64,000 bases of DNA, from the NCBI GenBank assembly GCA_963770035.1, contig CAVYON010000028.1:2458-66457 (forward strand), in the 5' to 3' direction. A program made the translations under genes and the position numbers. The notes below the pieces were generated by a model. The model was not told the DNA's origin and ran no database searches. It was given only the letters and a program-made list of their open reading frames with translations. This document shows positions 1,185 through 23,535 of the stretch, in pieces. This DNA is from an uncultured Alphaproteobacteria bacterium (GTDB lineage Bacteria; Pseudomonadota; Alphaproteobacteria; Rhizobiales; Beijerinckiaceae). Within the stretch, counting starts at the first letter, position 1; each line of letters opens with the position of its first letter.

Positions 1185-2568
1185 ATGAGCAACGCGATGT
1201 GGGGCGGCCGATTCACCGTCGGGCCGGCCGAAATCATGGAGGAGATCAACGCCTCGATCGACTTCGACCGGAAGCTGGCCGCCCAGGACATCGCCGGCTC
1301 CCTTGCCCACGTCGCCATGCTCGCCCGACAGGGAGTTGTCGAGGCGGCCGACGCCGAGGCCATCGCCAGGGGTCTGAACGAAGTCAAGGGCGAAATCGAG
1401 GCGGGAACCTTCGCCTACTCGCGCGCGCTCGAGGACATCCATATGAATGTCGAGAGCCGCCTCGCCGAGATCGTCGGACCGGCCGCGGGGCGCCTGCACA
1501 CGGCGCGATCGCGCAACGACCAGGTCGCGGTCGACTTCCGCCTCTGGGTGCGCGACACGATCGATGCGCTCCTCCTTCAGATCGCCGACCTGCAGAAGGC
1601 GCTCACCCTCCGCGCGCTCGAGACCGCCGACATGGCGATGCCCGGGTTCACCCACCTCCAGTCGGCCCAGCCCGTCACCTTTGGCCATCACCTGCTCGCC
1701 TATGTCGAAATGCTCGGGCGCGACGCCGGCCGCTTCCGCGACGCCCGCAAGCGCCTCAACGAATGCCCGCTCGGCGCCGCCGCCCTCGCGGGCACCTCGT
1801 TTCCGATCGACCGCGAGGCGACCGCCAAGGCGCTCGGCTTCGACAGGCCGACCGCCAATTCGCTCGAATTCGGTCGCCGACCGCGATTTCGCCCTCGAGG
1901 CGATCAGCGCGGCGGCGATCGCGGCGACCCACCTGTCGCGGCTGGCCGAGGAGTTCGTGCTGTGGACGACGCCGCAGTTCGGCTTCATCCGGCTCTCGGA
2001 CGCCTTCTCGACCGGCTCCTCGATCATGCCGCAGAAGCGCAACCCGGACGCGGCCGAACTGGTGCGCGGCAAGACCGGCCGGGTCGTCGGCGCGCTGGTC
2101 GGCCTCTTCACCGTGATGAAGGGTCTGCCGCTCGCCTATTCCAAGGACATGCAGGAGGACAAGGAGGGCGCGTTCGACGCGCTCGAGACCCTGTCGCTCT
2201 GCCTCGCCGCGATGACCGGCATGGTCAAGGACCTGACGCCGGACGCCAAGCGGATGAAGGCGTCGGCGGGCGCGGGCTACGCCACCGCCACCGACCTCGC
2301 CGACTGGCTGGTCAAGACGCTGAAGACGCCGTTCCGCGAGGCTCACCACATCACCGGCCGGATCGTGGCGCTCGCCGCCGAGCGGGGCGTCGGGCTGGAA
2401 AAGCTCAAGCTTGCCGACCTCCAGGGCGTCGAGCCGCGCATCACCGAGGACGCGTTTGGCGTGCTTGGCGTCGAGCGCTCGGTGAGGAGCCGCACCTCCT
2501 ACGGCGGCACGGCCCCCGCCAACGTCAAGCGGCAGGCGAAGGCGTGGCTGAAGCGGCTCGGGGGATAG
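1185..2568 (+). CDS. argH: Argininosuccinate lyase (apparent +1 frameshift at about 1868)
   Basis: [16 protein letters not shown] and PGFTHLQ in ORF 1185; [12 protein letters not shown] signature in ORF 1447..2568. Removing one base from GAATTC (1866-1871) gives NSLDSVADRDF. Confidence 0.95.
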
Positions 2569-2890: not shown

Positions 2891-3958
2891 CTATCGGCCC
2901 GGCTTCCTCCAGATGTCGCGCTCGACCATTGTGGCGATCTGCCGGTCGATCACCTCGCGCCGGAAGTCGGCATGATTATACGGAGCGCGGTCGAGATAGA
3001 GGTTCTTGGGATAGATCGGCTCCTCGTAGATCGTCTGATAGACCTCGGTGCGCAGGTCCTTCATCCAGTTGTCCCACTGCGCCCGCGTGCGGTGGTCGCG
3101 CAGCGCCTCGATGTCGATCGTGCCGGCGACGTAGGACGAGCCCGCGCCGTAGTCGTGCCGGCCGACGATCCGGCCCTTGTAGTCGACGATCATCGAGCGG
3201 CCGCCAAACGTGTCGATCGGCAGGTCCGCGTCGGCGTCGAGATAATAGGTGCCCATGTTCGGGGCGACGACGAAAAAATTGTTGTCGAGCGCGCGCGCCC
3301 GGTTCTGGATCTCGAAGAACTCGTTGCCGGTGTGCGGATGCGGGTACGAGGCGCGATAGACCACCTCGGCGCCGTTCATCGCCAGCCCTCGCGCATTCTC
3401 GGGATACGATCCCTCGTTCGCCATCAAGACGCCGAGCCGGCCGATCTCGGTGTCGGCGACCGGATAGAAGGCGTCGAGCGTCTTGCCGTAAAGCTCGATC
3501 CAGCGGTCCCACACGTCGTGCGGGGTCATCGAATGCTCGACCGGATAGAGGGTCGCGAGCTTGTAGTGCTTCAGCACCACCTCGCCGTTCGGATCGATGG
3601 CGAAGCCGACGTTGAAGAAGCGGTCCGGGAACGCCTCGTGGCGCGCCTTGGCCTGGCCCATGATGAACACGTTCCACTTGCGCGCGAGGTCGCCGAGGAA
3701 TCGCGTCTCGGGGCCGGGGATGTCGATCGCCGTCTCGCGGGCGTAGGTCACGTGATCGAGGTCGAACACCTCGTCGGTGAAGCCCTGCAGCGCGCCTTCC
3801 GGCACGGCGACGAGCCGCACCGGCAAATCGAGGCTCGAGAGCCAGGAGGCGGCGGCGATCATGTGGGCGATGTGGTCGAGATTGCGCTCGATCTCCGCCC
3901 GCTTGCGCACGCCGCGCACGGTCGGGATCAGGCCGACGGCCGTATAAGGCTGAACCAT
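2891..3958 (-). CDS. Nitrilase/carbon-nitrogen hydrolase superfamily protein with Ala at the catalytic Cys position
   Basis: VPEG (Glu), HYKL (Lys), IGRLGVLMANEGSYPE..ARGLAMNGAEVV, RARALDN and GGRSMIVD motifs. Confidence 0.85.
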   Translation of the reverse strand: MVQPYTAVGLIPTVRGVRKRAEIERNLDHIAHMIAAASWLSSLDLPVRLVAVPEGALQGFTDEVFDLDHVTYARETAIDIPGPETRFLGDLARKWNVFIMGQAKARHEAFPDRFFNVGFAIDPNGEVVLKHYKLATLYPVEHSMTPHDVWDRWIELYGKTLDAFYPVADTEIGRLGVLMANEGSYPENARGLAMNGAEVVYRASYPHPHTGNEFFEIQNRARALDNNFFVVAPNMGTYYLDADADLPIDTFGGRSMIVDYKGRIVGRHDYGAGSSYVAGTIDIEALRDHRTRAQWDNWMKDLRTEVYQTIYEEPIYPKNLYLDRAPYNHADFRREVIDRQIATMVERDIWRKPGR

Positions 3959-4058
3959 GCGTTCCCTCCGGCTTTGGACGAAATGATCGGACGAGGCGCG
4001 GGCAAGGCGCTTCGCCTTCGATGGATTTGGTGGCAAGCGGCCGGCGCAGCGTCAAGGG
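3779..4058. repeat. Direct repeat copy 1 (about 280 bp): upstream region and 5' end of the nitrilase gene
   Basis: Aligns by eye with 5055..5334; both end in ...ggcgcagcgtcaaggg. Confidence 0.9.
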
Positions 4059-4315
4059 TTTTTCACGCGCCATGTTCAACCGCAGGCGCGGCCAGGTGGG
4101 GTGGCGAAGCAGGCGCAAAAGGGCTTGGAGCAAGTGTCAGCGGTTTCCCGCGATATTCTGCTATGTGGATCATGGCGCCGCAAATCGAGAGGCGGGCCGC
4201 GCTGGCGGGCGGTTGGAGCCGTCGGACCGGCCTTCGCAGCCCATGGGCGGAAACATGGCGGCGACGCCGCTTGCCCGTCAACGCGCTCGCGCCGATTGCC
4301 GTCGCCCAGGTGATG

Positions 4316-4331
4316 TGATATCAATGATATC
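4316..4331 (+). promoter_or_regulatory. Probable antitoxin operator (tandem TGATATC(A) palindromes)
   Basis: tgatatca-a-tgatatc just upstream of the GAGGAGG RBS of the RHH antitoxin. Confidence 0.5.
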
Positions 4332-4351
4332 GTCCCGATAGAGGAGGCGCG

Positions 4352-4591
4352 GTGGTGGTTGACCTGCTCGTCCGCAACGTCGACAAATCGCTCGTCCGAG
4401 CGCTGAAGGAGCGCGCCGGCGCACACGGCCGCAGCGCGGAGGCGGAGCATCGCGCGATCCTCGCTGCGGCGCTGGCGCGCCCTCGCCGGCTGAGCTTCGC
4501 CGAGGCGCTTCAGTCGATGCCGGCGGTCGGCCTCAACTCCGATTTCGAGCGGGTCGAGAGCGTTGAAGAGCCCAGCGGTGTACTTGATTGA
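4352..4591 (+). CDS. FitA-like ribbon-helix-helix antitoxin
   Basis: LLVRNVDKSLVRALKERAGAHGRSAEAEHRAIL pattern; strong RBS; overlaps the PIN toxin gene. Confidence 0.85.
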   Translation: MVVDLLVRNVDKSLVRALKERAGAHGRSAEAEHRAILAAALARPRRLSFAEALQSMPAVGLNSDFERVESVEEPSGVLD

Positions 4592-4997
4592 CACGAACGT
4601 CATCAGCGAGGCGCGAAAAGGCGACCGAGCGAACAAGGGCGTGGTCGAATTCTTCGAGGAGGTCGCCTCGTCGGGCGCTCCGCTTTTTCTTTCCTCGGTG
4701 ACCCTCGGCGAGTTGCGCCGCGGCGTGGAGCTGATCCGGCGCCGCCGCGACGCTGATCAAGCCGAGCGGCTCGAGACGTGGCTGACGAGCCTCGTCGAGT
4801 CCTTTGGCGAGCGCATTCTCGCCTTCGACGCCGACGCCGCTCAGGTCTGGGGCCGGCTCAGAGTCCCCGATCCCAGCCACGCGCTCGACAAGCAAATCGC
4901 CGCAATCGCACTCGTCAACGACCTTACCCTGGTGACCCGTAACCTCGCGGATTTCCAAGGCTTGGGGCTCAGGCTCAAGGATCCGTTCGTTTCCTAA
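4578..4997 (+). CDS. vapC: FitB/VapC-family PIN-domain toxin
   Basis: YLIDTNVISE, TLGELRRG, DKQIAAIALVNDLTLVTRN..DF motifs. Confidence 0.9.
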   Translation: MYLIDTNVISEARKGDRANKGVVEFFEEVASSGAPLFLSSVTLGELRRGVELIRRRRDADQAERLETWLTSLVESFGERILAFDADAAQVWGRLRVPDPSHALDKQIAAIALVNDLTLVTRNLADFQGLGLRLKDPFVS

Positions 4998-5054
4998 GAA
5001 GCGCGGTGAATCCCCGTTTCCCAGGACAGAATACGGGATTCCGCTGACTCCTAC

Positions 5055-5334
5055 GAAGCCCCGGAGCGCGCTTTCCGGCCGGCGACGAGAGGCGCCGGCA
5101 AGTCGAGGCTCGAGAGCCAGGAGGCGGCGGCGATCAGGGGAGCGACGGGCTCGAGATTGCGCTCGATCTCCGCCCGCTTGCGCACGCCGCGAACGGTCGG
5201 GATCAGGCCAACGGCCGTATAAGGCTGAACCCTGCGTTCCCTCCCGCTTTGAACGAAATGATCGGACGAGGGCGCGGGCAAGGCGCTTCGCCTTCGATGG
5301 ATTTGGTGGCAAGCGGCCGGCGCAGCGTCAAGGG
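5055..5334 (-). pseudogene. Degenerate copy of the nitrilase promoter and first ~60 codons (direct repeat copy 2)
   Basis: QPYTAVGLIPTVRGVRKRAEIERNL..IAAASWLSSLDLP retained; start ATG changed to AGG; indels at the distal end. Confidence 0.88.
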
Positions 5335-6537
5335 CTAATTGGCGCGGGCCGACAAGCTTTCCGACTTTGTCAGCTTCGCTGTCTTGGGGTCGTAGACGAA
5401 ACCGGCGATCGTGCCGTCCTTGATCCTTTTGACGGCCTCATCGATCGCGAACAGCGGAACGAGAAACCACTCCTTTGGAATGACGGGCTGGCCGAACCGG
5501 TCCTTGATTTCGATCTCCAGTCGAGCCGGCGCGAAGATACGGTGAATGAGATTTCGAGCCGGGTGCGATTGATGTTGTAAAGCTCGTAGGTGGCGACGAT
5601 CTCGACGTCGGCCATGAGAAACGTCGGCTGCAAGCGCGCGCCCTGGACGCGCTGCTTCACGTGCATGTTCGTGACGCCGATCTTGTGAACGAGGTCCCGG
5701 TTGGCCGCGACCAGCGGGTGATCGGATTTGCTCCTCAGGACATAGATTGTCCCGCTGGCTTGGTCGTCTTCGGCAAGTTCCTCGGAGAAGAGCGGGCCTG
5801 CGACGGGATCGGTGATCCGTCGCGCCGTTTCATCCCCGTTGAGCGCCCGCTGAAGCGACCGCATCAGCATGTTGCTCTCGGTGCCGTTGTCGAAAATCAC
5901 CCGTAGCCGCGCGTCGGTTTTCCCGTGCGGGGTAGTGAAGGTGTCCCCGGCCTCGGCGACGTAGGCCTTCTGTCCCTCAAGGACAAACCATGCGCCCTTC
6001 CTAATTTCGGCCTTCAACTCAAAGGGGCGGGTCTGTCGCGTTCCTTCGTCGAGTTCCTTCTGAATCGTCAGGAACAGCGGCTTGAACGTGTCGAAGTCGG
6101 CGCACTTCTGGCGAGTGGCGACCTCTTCCGCCGCCCGCCTCTCGGCGCCGCTCGCGACGTGACGCAGATCGGTGATGTCGGGTTCGCCGTCGGCGCCCTG
6201 CAAGTCGGCGAGCAGTTCATCCTCATCAATCGGCTCCTCCGGCTCTCGCAACCGTCGCCTCCGCGCCTACCAGCAGGCCCTGATGATCGAGCGGGGCAAG
6301 CAGCGCCCGGCAATCGTCAAGCGCGCGCAGGCGATCGAGACGGACGGCATACAGCCGCTCGAAAATGTCTCGGTCTTCGCCATGCCGAGGCGTGCGGCCA
6401 TGAGTTTCTACAAATCGCTGGATTTCCTCGAAACCCGCGATAATCCGCTCCTCGCGCGGCGGCCGGCCCGACGATTTCTCCGGTGGCGCGAAGTCCTCGA
6501 GTTCGGCGCTCAGTTCGTCGAGGTCGACATCACTCAT
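5335..6537 (-). CDS. YeeC-like T5orf172/GIY-YIG-family nuclease (two apparent frameshifts, about 6245 and 5555)
   Basis: ORFs 6226..6537 and 5370..6251 join. GTIYVL..HKIGVT and terminal PKEWFLVPL motifs; the corrected frame stops at TAG 5335-5337. Confidence 0.8.
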
Positions 6538-8587
6538 AGCGCCCCTCTTTCTTGAAGCGCATGAAGGCGGCCGCGCCCTCGGCCATCTTATTCTCCCAGG
6601 CGTCGGCCGACGCGATCGACGGCAGCCGGCCCCTCTCCTTCTTGAACTTGGAGGCCCGGACCGCGAGGGTCTTTGCCTCTTCGGGCGTCAGGGTCGTACG
6701 CTTGGCGGCGATCGCCGCCTTGACCTGTATGAGCCGTTCCTCGGTCATGCTCTTGGCGAGAATCGCGTAGGCCTCGCCGAACGGATTGATCTGGTCGATC
6801 AGATCGATGTCGAGGCCGGTGACGTCCATCGCATATTTGCGCACGCCGTCGACAAAAGCGGTATTGCCGCTCTCTTCGCCTTCAGCGAAGCCGCCGCCGG
6901 CGGCCCCGCCGCTGTTGGCGATTTCCTTCGCCTTCTGGGTGAGGTTCAGCGCGGCGACGGCGTGCTGTCGCACCGCCTCCTGATCCGCCTCGTCCAGTTC
7001 GGGATATTTGTCCTTGACGATCTTGCCCATCCGGACCTGGGTCAACTCCTCCGGGACCAGTTCCTCGTCGAAAATACCGCGCTCGATCGTCGTCTTGTCC
7101 TGCACGAAGGCGGCGATGACCTCGTTCAGGTCCTCCTGACAGATGCGCGTCGCCTCCTCGCTGTTCGGAGTCGCAAGCCCCTTGATCTCGATCTGGAACT
7201 TGCCGCTTTGCTCATCGAAGCCAACGTTGCATTTGTCGGGGTCGTAGCCGCCCTCGCCGTAATCGAAGCCCGGCGTCGGACCATTGTTCGGATTCTTCGG
7301 CTTGAATTCGAAGCGCGGCGCCAGCACCTGCTCCATCAGCAGGCTCGCCGCGATCGCCTTCAGCGTATCATTCACCGCGCCGGTCACAGCGTCGTTGGCG
7401 GCGTCCGGCTCGGCGATCAGGTTCGAGAAGTGCGCGCGCGTCTTGCCCGGCGCGTCGCGGGTCGCGCGCCCGATAATCTGCACGATCTCGGTGAGACTGG
7501 CGCGGTAGCCGACCGTCAGCGCGTGTTCGCACCAGATCCAGTCGAAACCCTCCTTCGCCATGCCGAGCGCGATGATGATGTCGACGTAGTCGCGATTGTT
7601 CTTCTGCGTCGGGTCCTTGAGCGCGGCGGAGACCTTGTCCCGCTTGGCGGGATCATCGTCCACGAGGTCCGCGATCCGCAACAGGCGCCCCTCGGGCGTC
7701 TTGACGAGCTGGAAGCCGGTCGCGGGGTCGGAGCCTTCCCAGTTCCCCAGCGCCCCAAAGATGTGCTCGACCTCCTTGACCTTGTCCTTCGTGCTCTCGC
7801 GCGAGTTGACGTTCGGGATATGGACGATCGTCTTCTCGGAGGGGTCGAGCACCTTGAGGATGTCCTCGGCATAGGCGCCGGCGTAGAAGAAATAGCCGAT
7901 GTCGAGCTGCTTCAGATATTCGTAGCCGTTGAGCTGCTCGTAGTAGGTGTAGGTGACGGTGTCGAACTTCGCCTCGTCCTGCGGGGTCAGCACGGCGTCG
8001 GCGTCGCCTCGGAAATAGGAGCCGGTCATCGCGACGATATGCACCCGGTCGCGGGCGATGAACTGGGTCAGGTGCAGGCCGAGCTTGTTGTCCGGATTGG
8101 CCGAGACGTGGTGGAATTCGTCGACGGCGATCAGCCGGTCGTCGAACGCCTCGACGCCGAACTGAGCGACGGCGAAGCGGAAGGTGGCGTGGGTGCAGAC
8201 CAGCACCTTGTCGCCGCTCACCAGAAAGGCGCCGACCGCCTTGACCTTGCCGCCGTTGTCGGGGCCGGGGGCGTTGCAGAGGTTCCATTTCGGCTCGACG
8301 CGCCAGTCGGCCCAGAAGCCGAACTTCGACAGCGGCTCGTCCTGAAAGCTCGCGCCGATGGTCTTTTCGGGCACGACGACGATCGCCTGCCTCAGTCCCT
8401 GGTTCTGGAGCTTGTCGAGGGCGATGAACATGAGCGCGCGGCTCTTGCCGGACGCCGGGGGCGACTTGATCAGGAGATACTGTTCGCCCCGCTTCTCATA
8501 GGCGCGTTCCTGCATCGGCCGCATGCCCAACGCGTTGGCCTTGGTCGAACTGCCGTTGCGGGCATAGGAGACGGAGACGGAGGGCAC
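6530..8587 (-). CDS. YeeB-like superfamily 2 (DEAD/DEAH) helicase/ATPase
   Basis: Walker A SPPASGKS, Walker B DEFHH, motif III MTGS, motif VI QIIGRATRD; stop overlaps the start of the yeeC-like gene. Confidence 0.88.
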   Translation of the reverse strand: MPSVSVSYARNGSSTKANALGMRPMQERAYEKRGEQYLLIKSPPASGKSRALMFIALDKLQNQGLRQAIVVVPEKTIGASFQDEPLSKFGFWADWRVEPKWNLCNAPGPDNGGKVKAVGAFLVSGDKVLVCTHATFRFAVAQFGVEAFDDRLIAVDEFHHVSANPDNKLGLHLTQFIARDRVHIVAMTGSYFRGDADAVLTPQDEAKFDTVTYTYYEQLNGYEYLKQLDIGYFFYAGAYAEDILKVLDPSEKTIVHIPNVNSRESTKDKVKEVEHIFGALGNWEGSDPATGFQLVKTPEGRLLRIADLVDDDPAKRDKVSAALKDPTQKNNRDYVDIIIALGMAKEGFDWIWCEHALTVGYRASLTEIVQIIGRATRDAPGKTRAHFSNLIAEPDAANDAVTGAVNDTLKAIAASLLMEQVLAPRFEFKPKNPNNGPTPGFDYGEGGYDPDKCNVGFDEQSGKFQIEIKGLATPNSEEATRICQEDLNEVIAAFVQDKTTIERGIFDEELVPEELTQVRMGKIVKDKYPELDEADQEAVRQHAVAALNLTQKAKEIANSGGAAGGGFAEGEESGNTAFVDGVRKYAMDVTGLDIDLIDQINPFGEAYAILAKSMTEERLIQVKAAIAAKRTTLTPEEAKTLAVRASKFKKERGRLPSIASADAWENKMAEGAAAFMRFKKEGRYE

Positions 8588-8658
8588 GACGGCCGAACCC
8601 TTCCGACCTTGAGCAGCCCTTCGCGCCCCGCCGCGTTGCTGACGCCTTTGCGCGGCGC

Positions 8659-8781
8659 CCCTGGCAAAATTAATTTTGCGGTCTGAAAGAAGCCAGCCGG
8701 AACCTCCGCAATATCGGACGTGTCAACGTCCTCATCCGGGATCGCCTCGATCTCAGCGACGCGCTCTTTGGAGATAGGCAT
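8659..8781 (-). pseudogene. Truncated BrnA-type antitoxin (N-terminal ~40 aa only)
   Basis: MPISKERVAEIEAIPDEDVDTSDIAEVPAGFFQTAKLILP follows brnT with overlap. No C-terminal RHH-like segment in any frame before the yeeB start. Confidence 0.6.
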
Positions 8782-9041
8782 CGAATGCTTTCCTTTCGTT
8801 CCTTGTCGCCTTCCGCGCGCTGATGATCCGTGTCTTTCCATCTCTCTCCGTGGGCGCCACGCACACAACCGTCGTGCCGCCTATGAGCCCAAAACTGATC
8901 TCGCGCTCCTCGGAATGGTGCGTGGGATCCGGCCCGGAAACGACAGGTCCCTCCCAGATCGTCGCCGCCTCCTCGAAGCTGAATTCCGTGTTTCGTGAGA
9001 TTGGCGGCATTCTTTGCGGGGTCCCACTCGAACTGGTCCAT
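8753..9041 (-). CDS. brnT: BrnT-family ribonuclease toxin (apparent +1 frameshift at about 8983)
   Basis: FEWDPAKNAANLTKHGI joins SFEEAATIW..EEREISFG..RIISARKAT when one base of GAATTC (8981-8986) is removed. Confidence 0.82.
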
Positions 9042-9163
9042 AAGGATGCCCCATCCCTTAGGTGCGCTTCCGCCAGGCCGTTATCAAGCTTTGGTTGACT
9101 TGGCGGCAGTAGGCTCGTCTTGAAGCTCGCGCCGACACCGCAACGGAGGGTTCGTTGGGATCG

Positions 9164-9532
9164 TCATGGGTCGGAGTCCGGCGGGATCAGGGGACGGAGC
9201 GCGGCGATGAGGCCCGGAAGTCTTTCGGTCGTCACGCGCCAGACGATGTCGAGCCGCACATCGTCGTAGCCGTGGATAAGACGGTGGCGCAGGCCGGTCA
9301 TCTCGCGCCAGGGAATGTCCGGATGGGCGGATGAGAAGGCCTTCGACACCTTTCCCGCCGCCTCGCCGATCACTGCCAGTTTTCGGATGACGGCGCTCTG
9401 ATGCAGGGCGCTGGCGAGGAAGGCGCGCTCATCGAGGCCGGCGACGAAGGAGAGCGCGTCCTCGGCCGCGAGCCTCATGTCGAGCAAAAGCGCGGGATCG
9501 CGCGCGCCCTCGTCCGGACGATCAGGCGGCAT
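9164..9532 (-). CDS. HepT-like (DUF86) HEPN ribonuclease toxin
   Basis: AVIRKLAVIGEAA, IPWREMTGLRHRLIHGY (Rx4HxY motif). Confidence 0.88.
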   Translation of the reverse strand: MPPDRPDEGARDPALLLDMRLAAEDALSFVAGLDERAFLASALHQSAVIRKLAVIGEAAGKVSKAFSSAHPDIPWREMTGLRHRLIHGYDDVRLDIVWRVTTERLPGLIAALRPLIPPDSDP

Positions 9533-9836
9533 AGACAGGCTCGGCCCCGTTCAGGATCAGCCGACGGCGGATATAGTTGCGGCTCGTCTCGACATCCTTG
9601 CGATCGACGAGATCCACCGGCCGTTCGAGCAGCGCTTCGAGCGCGTCGCGGAAGTCGAGATAGCGCGTTAAGCCGTCATCCGGCGGTTCGAACTCAACAA
9701 GAAAATCGACGTCGCTGGTCTCGGCGTCGAAATCTGCGCCGCGCGCCGCCGAGCCGAAGACATCGAGCCGCGCCACGCCGAACCGCCGGCAGAGGGTTTG
9801 CAGTTCGACGCGCTTTTGTTCGACCGTCGCATGCAC
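9522..9836 (-). CDS. MntA-like minimal nucleotidyltransferase antitoxin
   Basis: VFGSAARG..SDVDFLVEF and RPVDLV motifs; overlaps the HEPN gene. Confidence 0.88.
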   Translation of the reverse strand: MHATVEQKRVELQTLCRRFGVARLDVFGSAARGADFDAETSDVDFLVEFEPPDDGLTRYLDFRDALEALLERPVDLVDRKDVETSRNYIRRRLILNGAEPVYAA

Positions 9837-9889
9837 CGAAGGAGTCCTTTCCTGCTCGCAATCTAGATTACGCAGATCATAGAGGCCCC

Positions 9890-9960
9890 GTCATCGCGAG
9901 CGAAGCGAAGCGATCCAGAGGAACGTAGAGCGCCCGGCGGCCCCTGGATTGCTCGTCGCC
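9890..9960. repeat. Partial REP/RIME-like palindromic repeat (gtcatcgcgagcgaagcgaagcgatcc...ggattgctcgtcgc)
   Basis: Internal inverted arms; same start motif as the element at 14913..14995. Confidence 0.55.
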
Positions 9961-10032
9961 TTGGGTCGCAGCCTGCGACATTGAAACATCTCTCCTGGCT
10001 GCTTGATTCCTTGCTTGGCGGTCGGCGCGCGG

Positions 10033-10164
10033 CTTCCTCCCCCTTGTGGGGGAGGATTGAGGAGGGGGGTCGCACTGAACTTCGAAAGTTTGGCGTCCTT
10101 CCCCTTGCAAATGAGAGATCAGCGCGACCCCCCATCCCTGCCTTCCCCCACAAGGGGGGAAGGA
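10033..10164. repeat. Long palindromic REP-like element, copy A
   Basis: Arms ctcccccttgtggggga..ggggggtcgc / gcgacccccc..ttcccccacaagggggga. Confidence 0.75.
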
Positions 10165-10202
10165 GAACGCCTTCAGTTTGACCGGCGCGCATCACCAGGC
10201 AG

Positions 10203-10449
10203 TTACTCCTCTCCTATCCCGGCTCCTCGAGCCTCGGCCCTTCGCGCGCTGCCCTTCGGCGGCTTCCCGCCTTCGCCATCCTTGGCGGCGGTCATCTTCG
10301 TATAAAGCTCGAACAGCTTTTCCAGCCGCTCCGTGTCATTTTTGAACCGGCGGCCAATGTAGATGCGCTCCAGCGCCTCGTCGTTGCGCTCGTGCGCCTC
10401 TCGCAAGTCGGCCGGCATGGCGTCGGGGTCGTAGAGGTCGGCGATCGTC
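10203..10449 (-). pseudogene. Orphan second copy of the methyltransferase C-terminus (ATIADLYDPDAMP...GIGEE*)
   Basis: ORF 10203..10499; codon usage differs from the in-gene copy. Confidence 0.85.
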
Positions 10450-10455
10450 GCGCGG

Positions 10456-10591
10456 CTTCCTCCCCCCTTGTGGGGGAGGATTGAGGAGGGGGGTCGCACT
10501 GAACTTCGAAAGTTTGGCTCGTCCTTCCCCTTGCAAATGAGAGGTCAGCGCGACCCCCCATCCCTGCCTTCCCCCACAAGGGGGGAAGGAG
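10456..10591. repeat. Long palindromic REP-like element, copy B
   Basis: Near-identical to 10033..10164. Confidence 0.75.
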
Positions 10592-10628
10592 AACGCCTTC
10601 AATTTGACCGGCGCGCATCACCAGGCAG

Positions 10629-13541
10629 TTACTCCTCTCCTATCCCGGCTCCTCGAGCCTCGGCCCTTCGCACGCTGCCCTTCGGCGGCTTCCCGCCTTC
10701 GCCATCCTTGGCGGCGGTCATTTTCGTGTAAAGCTCGAACAGCTTTTCCAGCCGCTCGGTGTCGTTCTTGAACCGGCGGCCGATGTAGATGCGCTCCAGC
10801 ACTTCGTAGTTCGCTCGGTGTCGTTCTTGAACCGGCGGCCGATGTAGATGCGCTCCAGCACCTCGTCGTTACGCTCGTGCGCCTCTCGCAGGTCGGCGGG
10901 CATGGCGTCGGGGTCGTAGAGATCGGCGATCGTCGCCGGGAAATGCGCCTCGCGGGCCAGCAGGATGTCCTCGGCGCAGCGGGTCAAGTCGGCCTTGTTC
11001 TTTTCGGTCAGCGTTGGGACCGGGAAAGTGTTCCAGCCGAGGTTGTTCGAATATCAGAATTCAGTTCGCAGTCTTACCGCAAATAGTAGATATCCATACT
11101 CAGATGAAGTTTGGATGTAATGAATAGAAAAGTCTACTAGAGCGAAGGCTTTGTAAATGGCAAAAGCTAGATGTTGTAATTACTATATTTCGAGTTCCAA
11201 CAGGCCGACTGGTAAATACTGCTCTCCTTTCCGAAGAAACCTGTGGGCACCAAAAATTGCGAGTCATCGACAAGTATCTCCTATTGAACGAAATCTGGTG
11301 CGGTCGCGCCGTAAGTGTGGCCGCAACTTCGCCGCCGTTTTTCCGGTACGCTAAGGACATTATCAATTCGCGCTGGACACCTCTGGCACTTTCTCGGATC
11401 AATCAGACTAAATCTGTTATCGTCATAGCCACAGGCAATAGCGAAGCCACCCATGATATGAACTCCGCTAGTTCCAGTAAGCTCGACGTATTATGAAGAC
11501 AAACTCCGGTTCGAGTCGAGCTAAGCCTTCGGGCTGAAGCTGCGTCAAGAAAAAGATTTCCCCCGTCATAAGGCGCATTGCCGAGTGATCATCGGAGACA
11601 GACCATTGCTGATTCTTAGATTTTCCGACAAACGATGACATCGTCGCCTTCAACAAGATATGCATTTATATTTATGCACTCTCCTTGGGACGATACTCGC
11701 CATAAATGTGTTTTTGCCGAATATGGCGTTTCGTTAGTCAGTCCAATGATGGTACAGGAAACACCGGCATTATGTTGTGCGATTGTTCGCCCATTTGAAA
11801 GAGTGCGATAGGCAAATTCAAGCCGGCATGCATAATTATAAACAAGTGGCCAAAGAACAGATACATGTATTCCTTGACAGATAGAATTAGTCGTAACAAA
11901 CGTGACGGCGTTTATCTCCAAATCTAAGAAACTGACTAAATCTTTATTATAAACCAGCCCGCACACGTAGTCTAAAGATTCGTTATGATTTCTCATCATG
12001 ACACAAATATTTGAGCCATATCATTTTTCTGATCGCTGGTCATGTTTCTTTCCCCCTATGTATGGAGGATTGCCGCATATATAAGTTTCTCCGCCTGCAT
12101 TCTCGAAATCGATTTGCGCTTGATCAAGCGGCGTGCTGAAACAGATCGTCGGCGTGCCAGCTTCACGCCCGTCCCTGTCGGCGGACAAACGCTCAACCAA
12201 TCCAGCCGCAGCGCATTTCCGCAAGTGATCCAGTTCTCCGCGTTCAGCGGCAGGAACTCGGCCAGCGCCTCCTTCTGGCCCGCGGTAGAGCACGTCGCAC
12301 TGGATACTCGGCGATGATGAGGGCAAGCCGCGCGATCTCGGCCGGAAAGTCGCGCAGCTCGATCCCGCGAAAATTCGTCAGCGGAATATCGCTCTTGCAG
12401 CCCGTCTTCCTTTCGTCGCCGGTTGATCTCCGCCTCGATCGCCCGCATCTCCTTGTAGGCGATGACGAGGAAATTGCCGGAGCCGCAGGCCGGGTCGAAC
12501 ACCCGGATCCGCGCCATGCGCCTGCGCAGGTTGAGCAGCATCCGGGAATTGTCGCCGGCCTCCTCCAAACGCGCCCGCAGGTCGTCGAGGAACAGCGGGT
12601 TCAGCACCTTCAAAATGTTCGGCACGCTGGTGTAGTGCATCCCAAGCGCGCCGCGCTCCTCGTCCTCCGCGACCGCCTGGATCATCGACCCGAAAATGTC
12701 CGGGTTGATCTTGGTCCAGTCGAGCCGGCCGACGTGAAGGAGATAGGCGCGCGCGGCCCGGCTGAAGCGCGGCGCGTCCAGGCTGCCCGAAAACAGCCCG
12801 CCGTTCACGTAAGGGAAGCGCGTCGGCCCAGCGCGGCAGCTTCGCCGCCGCGCGGTCCGCGCCCTTGGTGTTCATCGCCCGGAAGATCGCGCCGATCACC
12901 TCATGGGTGTTGGACGAGTCCCGTTCGCTCATCTGTTCGATGGCGCCACTGAAAAGCGAGTCGCCCAGAAAGATGTCGGTCCGTTGCGCGAAGAAGCAGA
13001 AGATCAGCCGCGCCATGAAATGGTTCATGTCGTGGCGGCGGGCGGCCGAGCCCCAATCGGGGTTTTCCTTCAGGAGCTCGACATAGAGCCGGTTCAGCCG
13101 GCTCGTCGCCCTGATGTCGAAGGCGTTCTCGCTGATCTGCTGGACGGTCGTAATGCCGGCGAGGGGCAGGAAGAAGCCGAAATGGTCCGGGAAGTCGGCG
13201 TAGCGGCAGGCGACGGTCCCGCCGCCGCCGACGTCCTCGGCTTCGAACCACTCGCCGTCCGTCGCCAGAACGAATTTCGCCTTCGCCTTGGCCGTCGCCG
13301 GGCTGGCCTTCAGCGCCGCCAGCGTTTTCGTGACCTCGCCGGAGGCGGCGACGGCGATATGGATGTTGTTGGTCTGAAGGACGCCGCCGAGGTCCGACCT
13401 GTTCGATTCGCCCTTGCGGAGGCGTTTGAGCGTCGTCTCTTTGTTGCCGAACGCTTCGAGGAAGGCGAACGGGAACTCCTGCGGATCAAACGGCCGCTCG
13501 GCCAGCCTGGTTACCGCCTCTTCGATCTCGACAGCGTTCAT
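10629..13541 (-). CDS. YeeA/MmeI-family N6-adenine DNA methyltransferase with target-recognition domain (multiple frameshifts as sequenced)
   Basis: RLIFCFFA, YVNGGLF, INPDIFGSMIQAV, GMHYTSVPNILKV, motif I VFDPACGSGNFL, motif IV CGNPPY, then FVTTNSICQG, VSSERR, GWNTFPVP and TIADLYDPDAMP C-terminal motifs spread over several frames. Confidence 0.85.
11050..12130 (-). other. AT-rich segment covering the methyltransferase target-recognition region
   Basis: Abrupt drop to roughly 40-45% GC (estimated by eye) inside a gene whose flanks are GC-rich; homologous motifs continue through it. Confidence 0.85.
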
Positions 13542-13714
13542 TTTCTAGAATCGCCCACCGGGCCGACAGTCCCCGCAACGCAGCATCGATAGCTCGTTTT
13601 TATGCGGCCACGCCAGGAAGATGTTTTGAACGCCGCTTTGCGCCACCGGCATGAGCGGCCCTCCCCCGCCTCCGCAAAAATCCCGCCCCGCTGAAACCTT
13701 TCGGCGTTTTGACC

Positions 13715-14003
13715 CCGTCACCGCAAACCCCGCATCTTGGAAAGAAAGCTGGCGAAAGTGTAATCTTCGCGCCACATTTTTGGCCCGGATCTCCCCGATG
13801 ACCGTCGCCGCTGAACAGGAAATTCCGCTCAGCCAGAACTGGACCTCGAGATCGGCAGACGCAGGATGTCGCGCAGAGCAGAAACGTTGATTCCACTGCC
13901 CGTCGCTTTGCTGGCCGTGAGCGTCGCCGCGCACGCCACGAGCCGCTCGCCCACCGCCGACCTGATGGATCCGTCGCCAACCCGTCCGTCAAGGAAATGG
14001 TGA
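13715..14003 (+). pseudogene. Degenerate copy of the cupredoxin promoter and signal-peptide region (repeat of 15039..15338)
   Basis: Shared blocks such as gaaagctggcgaaa.tgtaatcttcgcgcc, gaactggacctcgagatcgg and gacctgatggatccgtcg. ATG at 13866 gives MSRRAETLIPLPVALLAVSVAAHATSR.. then a deletion, a frameshift and a stop. Confidence 0.88.
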
Positions 14004-14080
14004 CGTCGTTCTGTCCGGGAAAGCTCGCCGCACGATCGTGTGGGACGATCCCTCCCTCCACCCCACCCTGGAGAGCGTGA

Positions 14081-14536
14081 ATGAGCGAAACACAGGTTGA
14101 TGATCTTTATGCCCTCCGCGCCGAGGTCGAGCAGTTGCGGAGGCAGAGCGACGAAACACGCCGCAGCACGCATATTCTCAGCGAGCAGGCGCATGACCAT
14201 GCCGCGCTGATCCTGGCTTATCAAGAGGCGGAAAGAGCCCTCCGCGACCGCGTCGCGGTGCTGGAGGAGGCGCTGCGGAAATCCGTGGAGACTTGTGCGC
14301 GAGAAGCCGCCTATTGGGCCATCAAAGGTGGCAGTCCTGAACTGATCGCTTCAAGAATCCGCGCCCTCACCCCAGCGCAGCCCTCACCCCCTCCCGACCC
14401 CACTCCGCAGTCCGTCATAGACGCCATGGGCTTCGACCCGTTCGCGTCAACACCGGATGGCCCTCCCGCGCCCGACCCGCGCGATGAGAGGATCAGGAGG
14501 CTGGAGGAGGCGTTGGGGAAGGCACGGGCCCTTTGA
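14081..14536 (+). CDS. Hypothetical coiled-coil protein with a Pro-rich linker
   Basis: GGAG RBS upstream, 151-aa ORF, heptad-like LRAEVEQLRR and ERIRRLEEAL; no recognisable family. Confidence 0.5.
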   Translation: MSETQVDDLYALRAEVEQLRRQSDETRRSTHILSEQAHDHAALILAYQEAERALRDRVAVLEEALRKSVETCAREAAYWAIKGGSPELIASRIRALTPAQPSPPPDPTPQSVIDAMGFDPFASTPDGPPAPDPRDERIRRLEEALGKARAL

Positions 14537-14544
14537 GGCCATGA

Positions 14545-14830
14545 ATGTCGAGCGAGGCTGCCCTGGTCGATCTCGAAGGTCTCCTCGCTGGAATGGCTGA
14601 GGAAGATAAGCGGCATGAGATCCGATCTCTCGGACGTTCTCTGCTGAGCAGATTTCGGTCTATCGGAATTCCAAAACGAATACGCCATCGCCCGCGACGC
14701 TCTGGAGGTCGAGGCGGGCGTCGACCGGCGTGTCACGCGCCAGGCGACCCTCGGACTCTTTTATTCAGGTTCGCTCGCTCCGCGCGATCAGGACAACGCC
14801 ATCAAGGGCCGTTTGCACGTCGCCTTCTGA
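14545..14830 (+). CDS. Hypothetical ~94-aa protein (restored by removing one base at GAATTC 14666-14671)
   Basis: MSSEAALVDLEGLL..FRSIG + FQNEYAIARDALEVEAG..RLHVAF*; closely follows the upstream ORF. Confidence 0.4.
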
Positions 14831-14910
14831 GCGGCCAATGGGCGGCGGAAGGATGAGGCGGCCTGTAAAGGTTCAACCTGATCTCCTGAATCAATTCAAG
14901 CATCCCGCAA

Positions 14911-14997
14911 CCGTCATTGCGAAGAGCGACCCCCGGGTCGAAGAGCCCGGGGGGACGAAGCAACCATGGAATCTTCGCCTTCGGCTCGCAATGACGG
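14911..14997. repeat. REP/RIME-like element with terminal inverted repeats ccgtcattgcga...tcgcaatgacgg
   Basis: 12-bp perfect terminal inverted repeat and an internal ccccggg/cccgggg hairpin. Confidence 0.75.
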
Positions 14998-15190
14998 CGG
15001 CGGAACTTGGCGCACTTATTTTGCTGTGTGTCCTAACACCGTCACCGCTAACCCCGCGTCGTCGGAGAGAAAGCTGGCGAAACTGTAATCTTCGCGCCGC
15101 ACTTTGGGCCCGCATCTCCCGGATGACCATCGCCGCTGAACAGGAAAGTCCGCTCAGCCGGAACTGGACCTCGAGATCGGGAGACAAGGG

Positions 15191-15646
15191 ATGTTACGCA
15201 GAGCAGCAACGTTAATTCCAATGACCGTCGCTTTGCTGGCCGTGGGCGCCGCAGCGCACGCCACGAGCCGGCCGTCCACAGTGGTGCACGTCGACCTGAT
15301 GGATCCGTCGACAAACCCGTCCGTCAAGGAAATGGTGATCAAATCGGACACGAAAGACGTGCCGGCGGGGCCCGTTGTCTTCCAAGTTTCCAACGACTCG
15401 AAGAACCTCGTTCACGAGATGATTGTCGTCTCGGTCGCGGAACCGCGCGCGGCGCTTCCTTATGACCGTAAAGACGGCCGCGTTGACGAAGCCAAAATCA
15501 AAGATCTCGGCGAAGCGCCCGATCTCAAGCCGGGAGAGAAGAAAACTTTGCAGCTCACGTTGAAGCCGGGCAATTATCTCCTGATCTGCAATCAGCCGGA
15601 TCACTACAAGAGCGGCATGGAAACCAGCCTTATCGTCACCCAATGA
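15191..15646 (+). CDS. Secreted cupredoxin (plastocyanin/azurin-family blue copper protein)
   Basis: Signal peptide, VHEM and CNQPDHYKSGM type-1 copper ligands. Confidence 0.88.
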   Translation: MLRRAATLIPMTVALLAVGAAAHATSRPSTVVHVDLMDPSTNPSVKEMVIKSDTKDVPAGPVVFQVSNDSKNLVHEMIVVSVAEPRAALPYDRKDGRVDEAKIKDLGEAPDLKPGEKKTLQLTLKPGNYLLICNQPDHYKSGMETSLIVTQ

Positions 15647-15824
15647 TTCCTGATCGGTCGGTCCGCACGAGGCCCGGCATAATTCATACGGGCTTCCCCG
15701 CGGCAGCGTATGGCGTCCGCAGCGCGCATCGCTCGAAAGCGGTGAAGCGCGCGTCGGAGCCGCAGGCAAAGCGTCAAGACCTACTTTACGCGCCGCCGGC
15801 GATCCGCACGGATGGCCGCCAACC

Positions 15825-18095
15825 TCATCGCCGCTCTATGGCGACGCGAACGCACGCAGTGGCGGCTGCCGTTCGCCGCGTTCGACCCCCGATGAAGCCG
15901 AGGCCCGCAAACCCGATCAGCGCCATGATCCAGGTCGCCGTCTCCGGCACGACGATGGTCGTCGCATTGAGGTTGGCGAAATATTCGGCGCGGAGCGGCG
16001 CGCCCGGCGACAGCGAATTGAAGATGAGGCGACTGGCGATGTCGCTGTCGAGCTCCGGGACATCGTAGCCGGACACCCAAAGCCCGAGGCCATGAATGTC
16101 GAGCGCCGATGTGCTGTCGATCGATAGCGTATCGGCGAACAGGACGTCGCCCGGGGTCGCGTGGTTCCGCGCGCCGTTCTCAATGGTCAGCCGGCTGTCG
16201 CTGGTCAGGTCGAGGGCCCCGATGGAAAACGGATCATCGAGCCCGAACACCGGGCCGAGCGGATTGTCGCCGGTCGCCTCGAACTGGGTTGTCGCGCCTT
16301 GGAGGGTGAAATTGATCAGCCGCGTGTCGAATGCGGGCGAGGCGACGTCGGTTGTCGTGTTGATGAAATTGGCGTCGCCGGTAAAGAGGAACGTGCCAGA
16401 GCCGTTGATCACGCCGCCCAACTGATTGTCGAGGTTGCCCTGGTCGATCTCGAAGGTCGCCGGGTCGAGCGTCAGCGTGGCGCCGGCCTGGTTGAGAACC
16501 GCCGGGTTGTTGACCGGTCCGCTCGCCCGCGCGACGCCTTTGACGACGAAGCGCCCGGCATTCGACACGCCGTTGACGAAAGTCGCCTGGCCGCCGGCGT
16601 TGAGGCGGAAGATCGCCGTCGCCGGGGCGGCGCCTTCCGCCGGGGCGTTGATGAACGAGAAGTTCTGTCCCAGGTTCTGGGCCGCCCCGCTCGCCATCAA
16701 CACGCCGTTGGCGTTCACGGTGATCGCGCCGTTGTTCAAGATGCCGCCGCTGAACGTCCCGGTCGCCTTGTTCGCCGCCGCGCCCGGTCCGATCGTCGTC
16801 GCAGCGCCGATCATGTTGGTATAAAGCCCCGCCACGTTGAACGACGCGCCGGCTTCCAGCGTCACCGAGCCGTTCATCCCATTGCCGCTGCTGTTGCTCA
16901 TCGGGCCCGAAATGGTGGTGTTGCCGGTGACGGTGAGCATGCCCGGATTGTCGAGCTTTTGCGCGGTGAAGGTGGCGGTCGCGGCGACGTTGAGCGTTCC
17001 GCCGTTGAGGACCCCGGTGGCGCCGCCTACGGTCAGCTTGTTGGCCGCCGCGACATTGAGCGTCGAGTTGATTCCGTTGAGCAACCCTTCGAGGTTCGCG
17101 GTGTTGGCGTTGACTGTAACGGTGCGCGCGGCGCCGGGATTGATGATCGCCACGTCAAAGTCCCGCGGCGCCTGGGCGACGCCCGGCGCGACGCCGCGCG
17201 ACCAGCTCGCGTTGGTGGCGAAGTTGCTGTCGGCGGCTGCGATGAACGTGTCGAAGGTGCTCTTCTGCGATCCTCCCACCGTGATGCCGCCGCCGTTGAG
17301 GAAGGTCGTGTAGGCGTTGACGCGCGTATCGATCGTCGCCAGGGGGTTGCCTGTTTCGAGCAGCGAATGGACGCCGACAATGCGGCGGGTGAAGAAAGGA
17401 AAGGTGTTCGTTAAAAAGATTCTGAAACTTGGACCGCCGGAATCTCCCGTCTGGACGACGTTCGGCCCGGCTGCGCTCTCAGGATAGCGGTATGTCGTCG
17501 CCGTGATGTCGCCGGCCGCCGCTCCGACCTGCGCCGTGCCGACCAAAGCGGAATTCCGCAACGGGCTCGCATTGCGACCGTATCCGACAATAGAGACTGT
17601 CGCGCCGGCCGCAAGGTTCTGCGCCGGCGTCGCGATCGAGTCCGGGACGATTCCGGCCGGCGAGGTCAACAAAAGCATGACGCCGATGTCGTTGGCGTTG
17701 GTCGCAGCGCTGTAGTTCGGCGCCTGCACCCCGAGGCCAAAAAGCGTGGTCGCTGGCGTCGGCGGATACGGTCCAAAGGACATCCGCTGAAAATGTGGCT
17801 GCAGCGTCGCCGCGCCTGTCACCGCGGAGGGCTGTTCGGTGTTCATGCAGTGCGCCGCGGTCAGAACGACGTTCGCGCCGATCAACGTTCCAGTGCAGCC
17901 GAAACCGCGCTCGTCGCCGACCTGCCCGATCGCGGTGTCAGTGTTGGTGGTCGTACCGGGTCCCTCGATTGCTGAAGCCTGCGATGCGCAAAGGCTAAAC
18001 AAAATCGCCGGCGCTATCGGCGCGACGCTGGCCCGACGTGTTCGGCGGAACTGTACAAATGCGCGGACTGCGCCCCATCGACCTACAAGATCCAT
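15825..18095 (-). CDS. Secreted trypsin-like (S1) serine protease with a Gly/Asn/Ala/Thr-rich passenger-like region and a PEP-CTERM-type sorting tail
   Basis: CTGTLI..VLTAAHC (His), NDIGVM (Asp), GDSGGP (Ser); C-terminal VPETATWIMALIGFAGLGFIGGRTRR. Confidence 0.85.
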   Translation of the reverse strand: MDLVGRWGAVRAFVQFRRTRRASVAPIAPAILFSLCASQASAIEGPGTTTNTDTAIGQVGDERGFGCTGTLIGANVVLTAAHCMNTEQPSAVTGAATLQPHFQRMSFGPYPPTPATTLFGLGVQAPNYSAATNANDIGVMLLLTSPAGIVPDSIATPAQNLAAGATVSIVGYGRNASPLRNSALVGTAQVGAAAGDITATTYRYPESAAGPNVVQTGDSGGPSFRIFLTNTFPFFTRRIVGVHSLLETGNPLATIDTRVNAYTTFLNGGGITVGGSQKSTFDTFIAAADSNFATNASWSRGVAPGVAQAPRDFDVAIINPGAARTVTVNANTANLEGLLNGINSTLNVAAANKLTVGGATGVLNGGTLNVAATATFTAQKLDNPGMLTVTGNTTISGPMSNSSGNGMNGSVTLEAGASFNVAGLYTNMIGAATTIGPGAAANKATGTFSGGILNNGAITVNANGVLMASGAAQNLGQNFSFINAPAEGAAPATAIFRLNAGGQATFVNGVSNAGRFVVKGVARASGPVNNPAVLNQAGATLTLDPATFEIDQGNLDNQLGGVINGSGTFLFTGDANFINTTTDVASPAFDTRLINFTLQGATTQFEATGDNPLGPVFGLDDPFSIGALDLTSDSRLTIENGARNHATPGDVLFADTLSIDSTSALDIHGLGLWVSGYDVPELDSDIASRLIFNSLSPGAPLRAEYFANLNATTIVVPETATWIMALIGFAGLGFIGGRTRRTAAATACVRVAIERR

Positions 18096-23476: not shown

Positions 23477-23478
23477 GC

Positions 23479-23535
23479 GAGACGAAATTAGGTTCGATCC
23501 GCTCCGGCGACAGGGGTCGAACCTGCATTCGTCTC
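23479..23535. terminator. Long imperfect hairpin immediately after asrC
   Basis: gagacgaa..aggttcga / tcgaacct..ttcgtctc inverted arms; no clear U-tract. Confidence 0.4.

Follow-up and report, generated by a model that had tools for sequence, protein, structure and literature searches.

The variable island described here lies between argH and prfB in a stretch of 64,000 nucleotides (nt) (the window) taken from the long-read metagenome assembly of a soil alphaproteobacterium (contig CAVYON010000028.1). The window is GC rich (~64%), and its closest relatives are long-read metagenome-assembled genomes of Alphaproteobacteria in the Microflora Danica (MFD) series, one of the matches being labelled Roseiarcus. 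A nitrilase-family gene and a cupredoxin gene anchor the island on the left and right, respectively. They are divergently transcribed, and both turn their 5' ends and upstream regions towards the island; these 5' ends are the conserved edges at which differing cargos are exchanged. Inside each edge lies a second, truncated and dead copy of the upstream region and 5' end of the anchor gene (hence, ghost). The left ghost is separated from the intact copy by a FitAB toxin-antitoxin (TA) pair and the right one by a segment here termed the right cargo, and a yeeABC cassette is directly flanked by both ghosts. Genes were identified with Pfam and the defence genes also with PADLOC; all of the identities given in a preliminary description of this DNA (CN_hydrolase, FitA, FitB, YeeC, YeeB, YeeA, and cupredoxin) match Pfam. 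The genes fitA and fitB, which are adjacent with an overlap of 29 nt and encode RHH and PIN domains, are accordingly a predicted type II TA pair. No integrase or transposase is found among the annotated open reading frames (ORFs) from argH to prfB, in agreement with the preliminary description.

Within the window, the only direct repeats of ≥60 nt are the intact and ghost copies of the nitrilase arm (A/A'), those of the cupredoxin arm (B'/B), and a tandem duplication at the end of yeeA; because there are no others in 64 kb, the two ghost pairs, the yeeA-end duplication apart, are far beyond chance. The left pair is direct, with a spacing of 1,275 to 1,276 nt, FitAB in between, a 280-nt ghost, and an overall identity of 92.6%; the right pair is likewise direct, with a 287-nt ghost, a spacing of ~1,325 nt, and an identity of 85.6%. 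Thus, the arrangement reported in the preliminary description holds in full on the left, as does its third terminal duplication at the yeeA 3' end. On the right, the position of the ghost holds, whereas the two intervening ORFans are probably not genes (see below). We found no further case of a ghost, a cargo, and an intact gene in this order in the window.

Both ghosts are dead. In A' the start codon has changed from ATG to AGG and the frame is shifted, and B' has a 9-nt deletion, a 1-nt deletion, and a frameshift. With orthologues as outgroups, the ghost carries 11 lineage-specific changes and the intact copy 3 on the left (outgroups L001 and L002), and the corresponding counts on the right are 20 and 9 (outgroups L005 and L029), which bears out the earlier view of the ghosts as decayed. 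The changes in both ghosts (2 to 4 times those of the intact copies) are spread evenly over codon positions. Since the intact copies have changed too, neither pair is recent.

The assembly contains Nanopore-type 1-nt indel errors, such as an extra base at ~1872 that breaks argH and a missing T after 5551 that breaks yeeC. Hence, single-base frameshifts in argH, yeeC, and yeeA say little about decay, for which substitutions are a reliable guide. The missing T is present in short-read contigs of the same strain; with this letter restored, yeeC is a single frame whose stop codon (TAG, 5335 to 5337) touches the ghost edge at 5334, just as had been noticed earlier. Given these errors and the co-occurrence of several related strains in soil samples, a long-read assembler might have strung together strain variants of the locus. 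However, each of the four ghost joints lies within independent short-read contigs assembled from other samples (X-labelled contigs; ~20 runs, low-depth assemblies rather than raw reads), so that an artefact of this kind is close to refuted and scarcely credible. A joint of positions 3901 and 5187 on a contig of X4 was considered as an excision product and rejected, as the contig is 237 nt long, derives from a diverged orthologue, and has 10 unmatched letters at the joint.

Table 1. Features of the argH-prfB island and short-read support for the ghost joints (window coordinates)
Feature	Position	Strand	Evidence or remark
argH	1185-2568		left of island
Nitrilase-family (CN_hydrolase) gene, intact, left anchor	2891-3958	minus	Pfam PF00795, E 2.5e-30
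Repeat A, intact copy: first 180 nt of nitrilase coding sequence (CDS) + 100 nt upstream	3779-4058	minus	direct-repeat comparison
Spacer j, repeat A to FitAB module	4059-4258		common to L028, L030, L034 (blastn)
Transferable FitAB module	~4258-5053		four different junction combinations in relatives
FitA RHH antitoxin	4352-4591	plus	Pfam PF22513, E 4.6e-15
FitB PIN toxin	4563-4997	plus	Pfam PF01850, E 1.7e-09
Ghost A', truncated dead copy of repeat A	5054-5334	minus	
yeeC (T5orf172/MUG113-like)	5335-6537	minus	Pfam
yeeB helicase (DEAD/ResIII), intact	6530-8587	minus	Pfam
BrnT-like toxin, frameshifted, between yeeB and yeeA	8753-9041	minus	Pfam
HepT, between yeeB and yeeA	9164-9532	minus	Pfam
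MntA, between yeeB and yeeA	9522-9836	minus	Pfam
Tandem duplication, yeeA 3' end + REP-like palindromes	10017-10936		
yeeA, MmeI-like type IIG methyltransferase/endonuclease	10718-13541	minus	Pfam MmeI_N, MmeI_hel; PADLOC REase_MTase_IIG
Ghost B', truncated dead copy: cupredoxin upstream 150 nt + first ~138 nt of CDS	13717-14003	plus	
Right cargo	14004-14866		holds ORFan1 and ORFan2
ORFan1	14081-14536		
ORFan2	14545-14856		
REP/MITE-like multi-copy element	14867-15040 (core 14886-15034)		directly left of repeat B
Repeat B, intact copy	15041-15337	plus	
Cupredoxin gene, intact, right anchor	15191-15646	plus	Pfam PF13473
Trypsin-domain PEP-CTERM protein gene	15825-18125	minus	
prfB	24853		core genes resume
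Joint FitB/ghost A'			X1 4905-5059; X4 4579-5178; also L033
Joint ghost A'/yeeC			X18 5206-5384
Joint yeeA upstream/ghost B'			X1 13547-13900
Joint ghost B'/right cargo			X13 13913-14123; X14 13812-14066; X6 13967-14292

The left ghost could be followed through seven related metagenome contigs (L028 to L034; ~92% nt identity), which were reached by a FitB search. Ghost copies occur in six of them, adjoining FitAB in five and lying elsewhere in one (L029). L028 and L030 have the order nitrilase, repeat A, spacer j, FitAB, ghost, and L031 and L032 have the order FitAB, ghost. In L033, a sulfite-reductase-like operon is joined straight to FitAB, which is followed by a FitB-ghost joint identical to that of the window and, beyond the ghost, by a PDC-S59-like candidate defence gene, i.e., a cargo unlike that of the window. 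L034, the contig without a ghost, runs from the nitrilase through repeat A, spacer j, and FitAB into DUF2189. The ghosts are cut at differing points on the CDS side: that of the window and that of L033 are ~280 nt long, that of L029 258 nt, that of L028 220 nt, and those of L030 to L032 200 nt. The loss of the start codon and two further derived sites are common to the ghosts of the window and L029, a derived GGCGCC is common to those of the window, L029, and L033, and a derived CGCAGAGAAAAT is common to those of L030, L031, and L033. The shared joint, the shared derived states, and the differing CDS-side ends together indicate one ancient ghost, formed once and long ago, which has been inherited across related strains, has eroded from its CDS side, and has been moved into new contexts.

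L029 differs from the other relatives in that its nitrilase and cupredoxin genes are divergent neighbours with HepT/MntA alone between them, and its homology to the window breaks off exactly where repeat A does, at 4058. This contig has FitAB 3' of the intact nitrilase, and its ghost lies 8 kb away beside a PEP-CTERM gene. An intact nitrilase gene is thus found downstream of FitAB, placed and oriented like the ghost, as might be expected had FitAB and the nitrilase gene (and likewise the cupredoxin gene) been duplicated in tandem as whole genes, with the inner copy later losing its 3' part. L030 has the same spacer to the left of its nitrilase, the differing ghost lengths would fit successive deletions, and a scrap of the downstream peptidase gene is present in the right cargo. 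Nevertheless, a separate ghost is present in L029 and has derived changes in common with that of the window, so the intact gene of this contig is not the precursor of the ghost. Moreover, tandem duplication by itself would yield A B A B and not the nested order, no other remnants of gene bodies are seen, and no relative has two full nitrilase genes. We regard this explanation as highly doubtful.

The junctions of L033 (sulfite reductase, FitAB, ghost) and L034 (repeat A and spacer j, FitAB, DUF2189) are those expected for reciprocal recombinants through FitAB, and the two contigs may have arisen in this way. FitAB adjoins the end of the sulfite-reductase-like operon in L029 and L033 (L033 positions 291 to 1420) and DUF2189 in L034 (positions 1 to 2259); in the window, the same operon end and DUF2189 are adjacent at 23430 to 23666, with no FitAB in between. 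A second FitAB site, with rearrangement by recombination between FitAB copies, is suggested.

Evidence that the left ghost recombines with the intact copy comes from the uneven identity between them. The CDS parts of A and A' are 90.1% identical, whereas the 100 nt upstream are 97 to 98% identical (98/100; Fisher P = 0.02 for the contrast). The upstream 100 nt of both window copies are only 71 to 80% identical to the copy of every relative; the CDS part of the window A, on the other hand, is 94 to 96% identical to the intact copies of the relatives versus 90% to A'. High identity within the window combined with low identity to relatives indicates gene conversion, by which the window ghost has been partly overwritten. 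Hence, the 64-nt block that is identical in both copies (3995 to 4058 and 5271 to 5334) is a conversion tract of a window-specific variant and not a sign of recent duplication. The same variant block is found in the A-type repeats of short-read contigs in X6, X19, and X20 (exact in X20 over 5271 to 5334), where it is followed by another flank.

The upstream boundary is the same in all A-like copies, namely ...GCGTCAAGGG plus ~12 loosely similar nt. At least seven differing right flanks, several of them defence-like, join the nitrilase arm there: spacer j with FitAB, yeeC, HepT/MntA, the PEP-CTERM gene, trypsin-like and Schlafen/AlbA_2 genes, the PDC-S59-like gene, and the unknown flank of X6, X19, and X20, which is absent from the window and from every fetched locus. 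These alignments show the boundary upstream of the nitrilase gene to be a recurrent junction for many differing, often defence-like cargos. It coincides with a TTGACG hexamer on the sense strand of the gene, which may be the −35 box of the nitrilase, although no promoter emerged from a consensus scan; the boundary may thus owe its sharpness to selection on nitrilase expression rather than to a recombinase site. Because the scan recovered no sigma-70-like sites in repeat A or B, the label "promoter" used for these repeats in the preliminary description is an assumption.

A sharp junction that recurs with many cargos might also be left by site-specific integrative elements of the e14-in-icd type that brought replacement 5' ends and promoters to the two genes, leaving the displaced originals as ghosts, and were later stripped of their integrases and most other genes. 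TA pairs typically survive in elements that have decayed, and such pairs are present here. The layout of the locus is also the same as that of icd, e14, and icdC (PMC13626634). However, only insertion sequence transposases occur near the ghosts of the relatives (in L028 and L029), with no integrase beside the ghosts of L028 to L034 or in the region itself, and the arms on either side of the yee island are unrelated to each other rather than two copies of an attachment (att) site. The boundary was also considered as an att or dif-like site; no conserved core or inverted repeat is visible to the right of it. An origin from decayed elements is therefore very unlikely.

The nitrilase anchor gene is itself a mobile module. 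Homology of the window to L028, L029, and L030 begins at 2900, at the 3' end of the nitrilase CDS. Across the relatives, the gene has three differing downstream neighbours, and homology begins exactly at the stop codon. Its orthologues are 80 to 93% identical and come from several phyla, some being binned to Chloroflexota and Actinomycetota; those collected here (L001 to L004 and P0001 to P0120) have no synteny or upstream homology with the window and served as outgroups only. Look-ups of the exact nitrilase and cupredoxin proteins of the window found no record, and plasmid searches recovered nothing close.

Between the ghosts, the yeeABC cassette is, judging from its distribution, a conserved and widely mobile unit. 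YeeB is 78 to 85% identical in amino acid sequence to the products of at least 575 metagenome stretches from many habitats, and the three-gene order with these domains is kept in 64 to 80 of 80 metagenome loci (L035 to L114). Homology of the cassette is limited to its own CDSs (from 5369-5371 to 13541-13547), ending on the yeeC side at 5369 to 5371 in 76 to 79 of the 80 loci, and the inserted TA genes and a yeeA segment of low GC content are left out of it. None of the 80 loci from the yeeB metagenome scan has nitrilase, cupredoxin, or ghost flanks, and none of the seven related contigs has the cassette. Since it is widely mobile and absent from these relatives, the cassette most likely arrived beside a preexisting left ghost.

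This order of arrival bears on the possibility that both ghosts arose at once, when a single allelic fragment (nitrilase 5' end, island, cupredoxin 5' end) was end-joined into resident cargo. Such an event would yield the nested order A, A', B', B with the ghosts directly flanking the island, and the divergences of the two pairs are similar (92.6% and 85.6% identity). Yet the left ghost and the same FitB joint occur in relatives that have neither the yee island nor the right ghost, the left ghost already had inactivating changes shared with L029, and a direct joint of FitB to the right cargo is seen in no contig. Hence, a single-fragment event, if any, was ancient and involved another cargo. 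We consider this scenario quite improbable.

On the right, homology to L005 spans exactly 15041 to 15647, its left start being equal to the left edge of the ghost; a scan of genome contigs with the cupredoxin recovered 23 loci with no synteny to the window, leaving 15041 to 15647 as a discrete module. Among the related contigs, the cupredoxin gene is found only in L029, where it has no ghost; L028 has the left ghost but no cupredoxin gene. L029 also shares with the window the 174 nt upstream of the cupredoxin module (14867 to 15040), an element whose depth of 80 to 340 in soil runs, many partial contigs, and unrelated flanks mark it as multi-copy across genomes. It resembles repetitive extragenic palindromic (REP) and miniature inverted-repeat transposable elements (MITEs). 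REP/MITE-like palindromes (e.g., CCGTCATTGCGA...TCGCAATGACGG) are also found at 10039 to 10158 and 10456 to 10591.

The right cargo itself does not look like a gene cassette. ORFan1 has no homologue among 5.8 billion proteins, the search having returned only itself, neither ORFan has a Pfam or PADLOC match, and both are probably not genes. A 50-nt patch (14535 to 14584) matches two pieces of the downstream peptidase gene (16086 to 16122 and 16430 to 16461) that are ~310 nt apart in that gene; the pieces encode TFEIDQG.L and ALDIHGL. The patch looks like a scrap of a deleted trypsin/PEP-CTERM paralogue, and it was the only remnant recovered when both cargos were searched for deleted gene bodies by sensitive blastn and tblastx. 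A cargo without homologues, with a REP element and a peptidase scrap, is better described as debris than as a cassette. The only RNA contig on the 20-kb region, X12 from a bioreactor metatranscriptome, matches 13940 to 14101 with 0 mismatches; it hints weakly at transcription across the joint of the right ghost and the cargo, with DNA carry-over as a possible source.

These observations bear on the mechanism put forward in the preliminary description, in which two independent circles of ~1.3 kb, each with the 5' end of a gene plus cargo, were captured by single (Campbell-type) crossovers as a general, integrase-free mode of accretion. The direct-repeat geometry with a truncated inner copy fits such capture, no integrase was found, the 64-nt stretch of identity could mark a heteroduplex or a crossover, and the repeats evidently recombine. 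Only this geometry survives, however. A recent local capture is at odds with a left event that is old, single, and inherited; FitAB and ghost do not behave as a unit, since FitAB also occurs where there is no ghost and among other neighbours; the right cargo does not form a gene cassette; and the matching spacings are best taken as a coincidence, as ghost length varies among relatives. No other case occurs in 64 kb, and no circle or empty-site junction was seen in the low-depth assembled contigs of the short-read runs. Likewise, none of the seven relatives, L029 and L034 included, differs from the window by exactly one repeat plus insert. We consider two such circles unlikely.

The explanation that we favour, giving it about an even chance, is that the ghosts are scars left at an exchange hotspot by duplicative recombination, in which one junction was homologous and the other illegitimate. 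A homologous crossover combined with a single illegitimate joint would leave the geometry of this locus, with direct repeats of the 5' arm flanking an insert and the inner copy truncated. DNA from another version of the same locus would enter by a homologous crossover in the 5' arm of the gene, and the second junction of the import would be an illegitimate joint, with an extra, truncated arm remaining inside. The intermediate might be a linear fragment, as in homology-facilitated illegitimate recombination (HFIR), or a circle that enters by a single crossover; these are indistinguishable by sequence alone. On the left, yeeABC would have arrived later beside the preexisting ghost. On the right, B' may be the truncated end of an import that brought yee from a genome with yee beside cupredoxin, or of a similar import, anchored by homology at one end and joined illegitimately at 14003/14004 at the other, with the right cargo as leftover debris. 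The absence of integrase genes is compatible with independence from an integrase.

Several points weigh against this explanation. The exact before state (e.g., the nitrilase with repeat A followed directly by yeeC) was recovered in no relative for either event, and the order of events, like the type of recombination, is therefore deduced from the present layouts. No convincing microhomology with the intact gene is seen at the abrupt joints 5053/5054 and 14003/14004. The right ghost occurs in no relative, so that the right side rests on one genome. Gene conversion blurs the phylogeny of the ghosts, and those of L030 to L033 are without some ghost-specific changes. The relatives are metagenome contigs, some of them short and some possibly rearranged or chimeric, and the complex layout of L029 fits no simple scenario. 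Finally, the mirror symmetry and the similar sizes of the two sides stay a coincidence under this reading, and with a ghost length that varies from ~200 to 280 nt among relatives, the similar sizes and spacings look coincidental.

Rather than inert scars, the ghosts could be partly functional, serving as reusable homology arms (landing pads) by which defence cargos are stacked or swapped without an integrase, although we think this improbable. Each import could then leave a nested ghost, with the upstream regions kept by gene conversion and able to overwrite the live promoter region; the ghosts could also still fire, and their transcripts would enter fitB in antisense on the left and, on the right, the joint region matched by X12.

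Parts of the arrangement have parallels in known systems, and we read it as a variant of known phenomena, namely, truncated copies of flank genes at island borders and one-sided recombination; there is no evidence for a new mechanism. Hill et al. in 1989 reportedly described the integration of e14 or phage 21 into icd as leaving the icdC fragment, a pseudogene. As in this window, the insert in the Escherichia coli icd locus (e14, and also phage 21) lies between an intact gene and a short, slightly diverged, nonfunctional fragment, and in both cases the two gene copies can recombine. In contrast, e14 duplicates the 3' end of its target and is a prophage that encodes an integrase, has a defined att core, and excises upon SOS induction (PMC13626634), whereas here the 5' end and upstream region are duplicated on both sides of the island, with an insert of ~1 kb and no integrase. 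GInt islands insert at gene 5' ends and have an outward promoter, a recombination operon of four genes (ginABCD), and imperfect att repeats, with no target duplication reported (PMC5385486). The window is similar in having an insertion beside a gene 5' end with expression preserved; the ginABCD and att features are absent from it.

HFIR in transformation or conjugation introduces ~1 kb of foreign DNA by means of one homologous anchor and one illegitimate joint, with no integrase (PMC3240628). It would fit the intact arm, the cargo, and the abrupt joint seen here. Unlike HFIR, in which the joint usually lies at 3 to 10 nt of microhomology, the window joints have no evident microhomology. Laboratory HFIR usually deletes recipient DNA rather than duplicating the anchor. 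Campbell-type insertion-duplication is a principle of laboratory mutagenesis, in which nonreplicating circles with an internal or 5' gene fragment give an arm, an insert, and an arm, one copy being truncated. The layout of the window is the same, with no circles or before-and-after pairs found here, and we are aware of no such accretion that occurs naturally, without an integrase, at defence hotspots.

Hotspots of defence genes and horizontal gene transfer that lack integrases and are bounded by core genes are, in the parts of the literature consulted, accounted for by homologous recombination in their flanks (PMC5635113, PMC10250203, and PMC10121019). As at such hotspots, yeeABC, PDC-S59, Schlafen/trypsin, and TA pairs share one position between conserved flanks in related strains. 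The portions of the published descriptions consulted make no mention of truncated 5' duplicates of flank genes inside the island (PMC5635113, PMC10250203, and PMC10121019), and, to judge from the same portions, the window also differs in that its flanks (nitrilase and cupredoxin) are mobile between contexts. Here, there are physical traces in the form of truncated flank-gene starts inside the island, one of them traceable through several strains. Most defence islands are hotspots without integrases, where exchange is usually ascribed to flank recombination without physical traces. Erosion, gene conversion, and at least seven cargos at one boundary constitute a datable record of hotspot remodelling, and one-sided (homologous plus illegitimate) recombination in nature could be tested with this locus.

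Some further features concern the interior of the cassette and the region before the cupredoxin gene. Across soil, freshwater, and marine metagenomes, yee cassettes are unusually conserved (~75% nt identity in yeeB). The gap between yeeA and yeeB ranges from ~60 nt to >4 kb and seems to be an insertion slot; the TA genes in this slot of the window are absent from it in other yee loci. The HepT/MntA pair (9154 to 9852) is 87% identical to that of L029 and reaches a depth of up to 862 in soil metagenomes. The yeeA reading frame is broken several times, and the MmeI_C-encoding end of yeeA is present in both copies of the yeeA-end tandem repeat, which has a period of ~424 to 485 nt and an identity of 93 to 100%. 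A yeeA segment at 11000 to 12000 has a GC content of 44% versus 64% in its context, no long open frame, and no homology to the 80 yee loci; it sits where the target-recognition part of an MmeI-like enzyme would be and looks like a swapped-in, decayed specificity region. A search of positions 1 to 22000 against Rfam recovered no family. The 150 nt before the cupredoxin start (15041 to 15190; L029, 13871 to 14025; L005, 9851 to 10000) are ~90 to 93% conserved between species, more so than the first third of the CDS, and may be an unrecognised leader, regulatory RNA, or operator.

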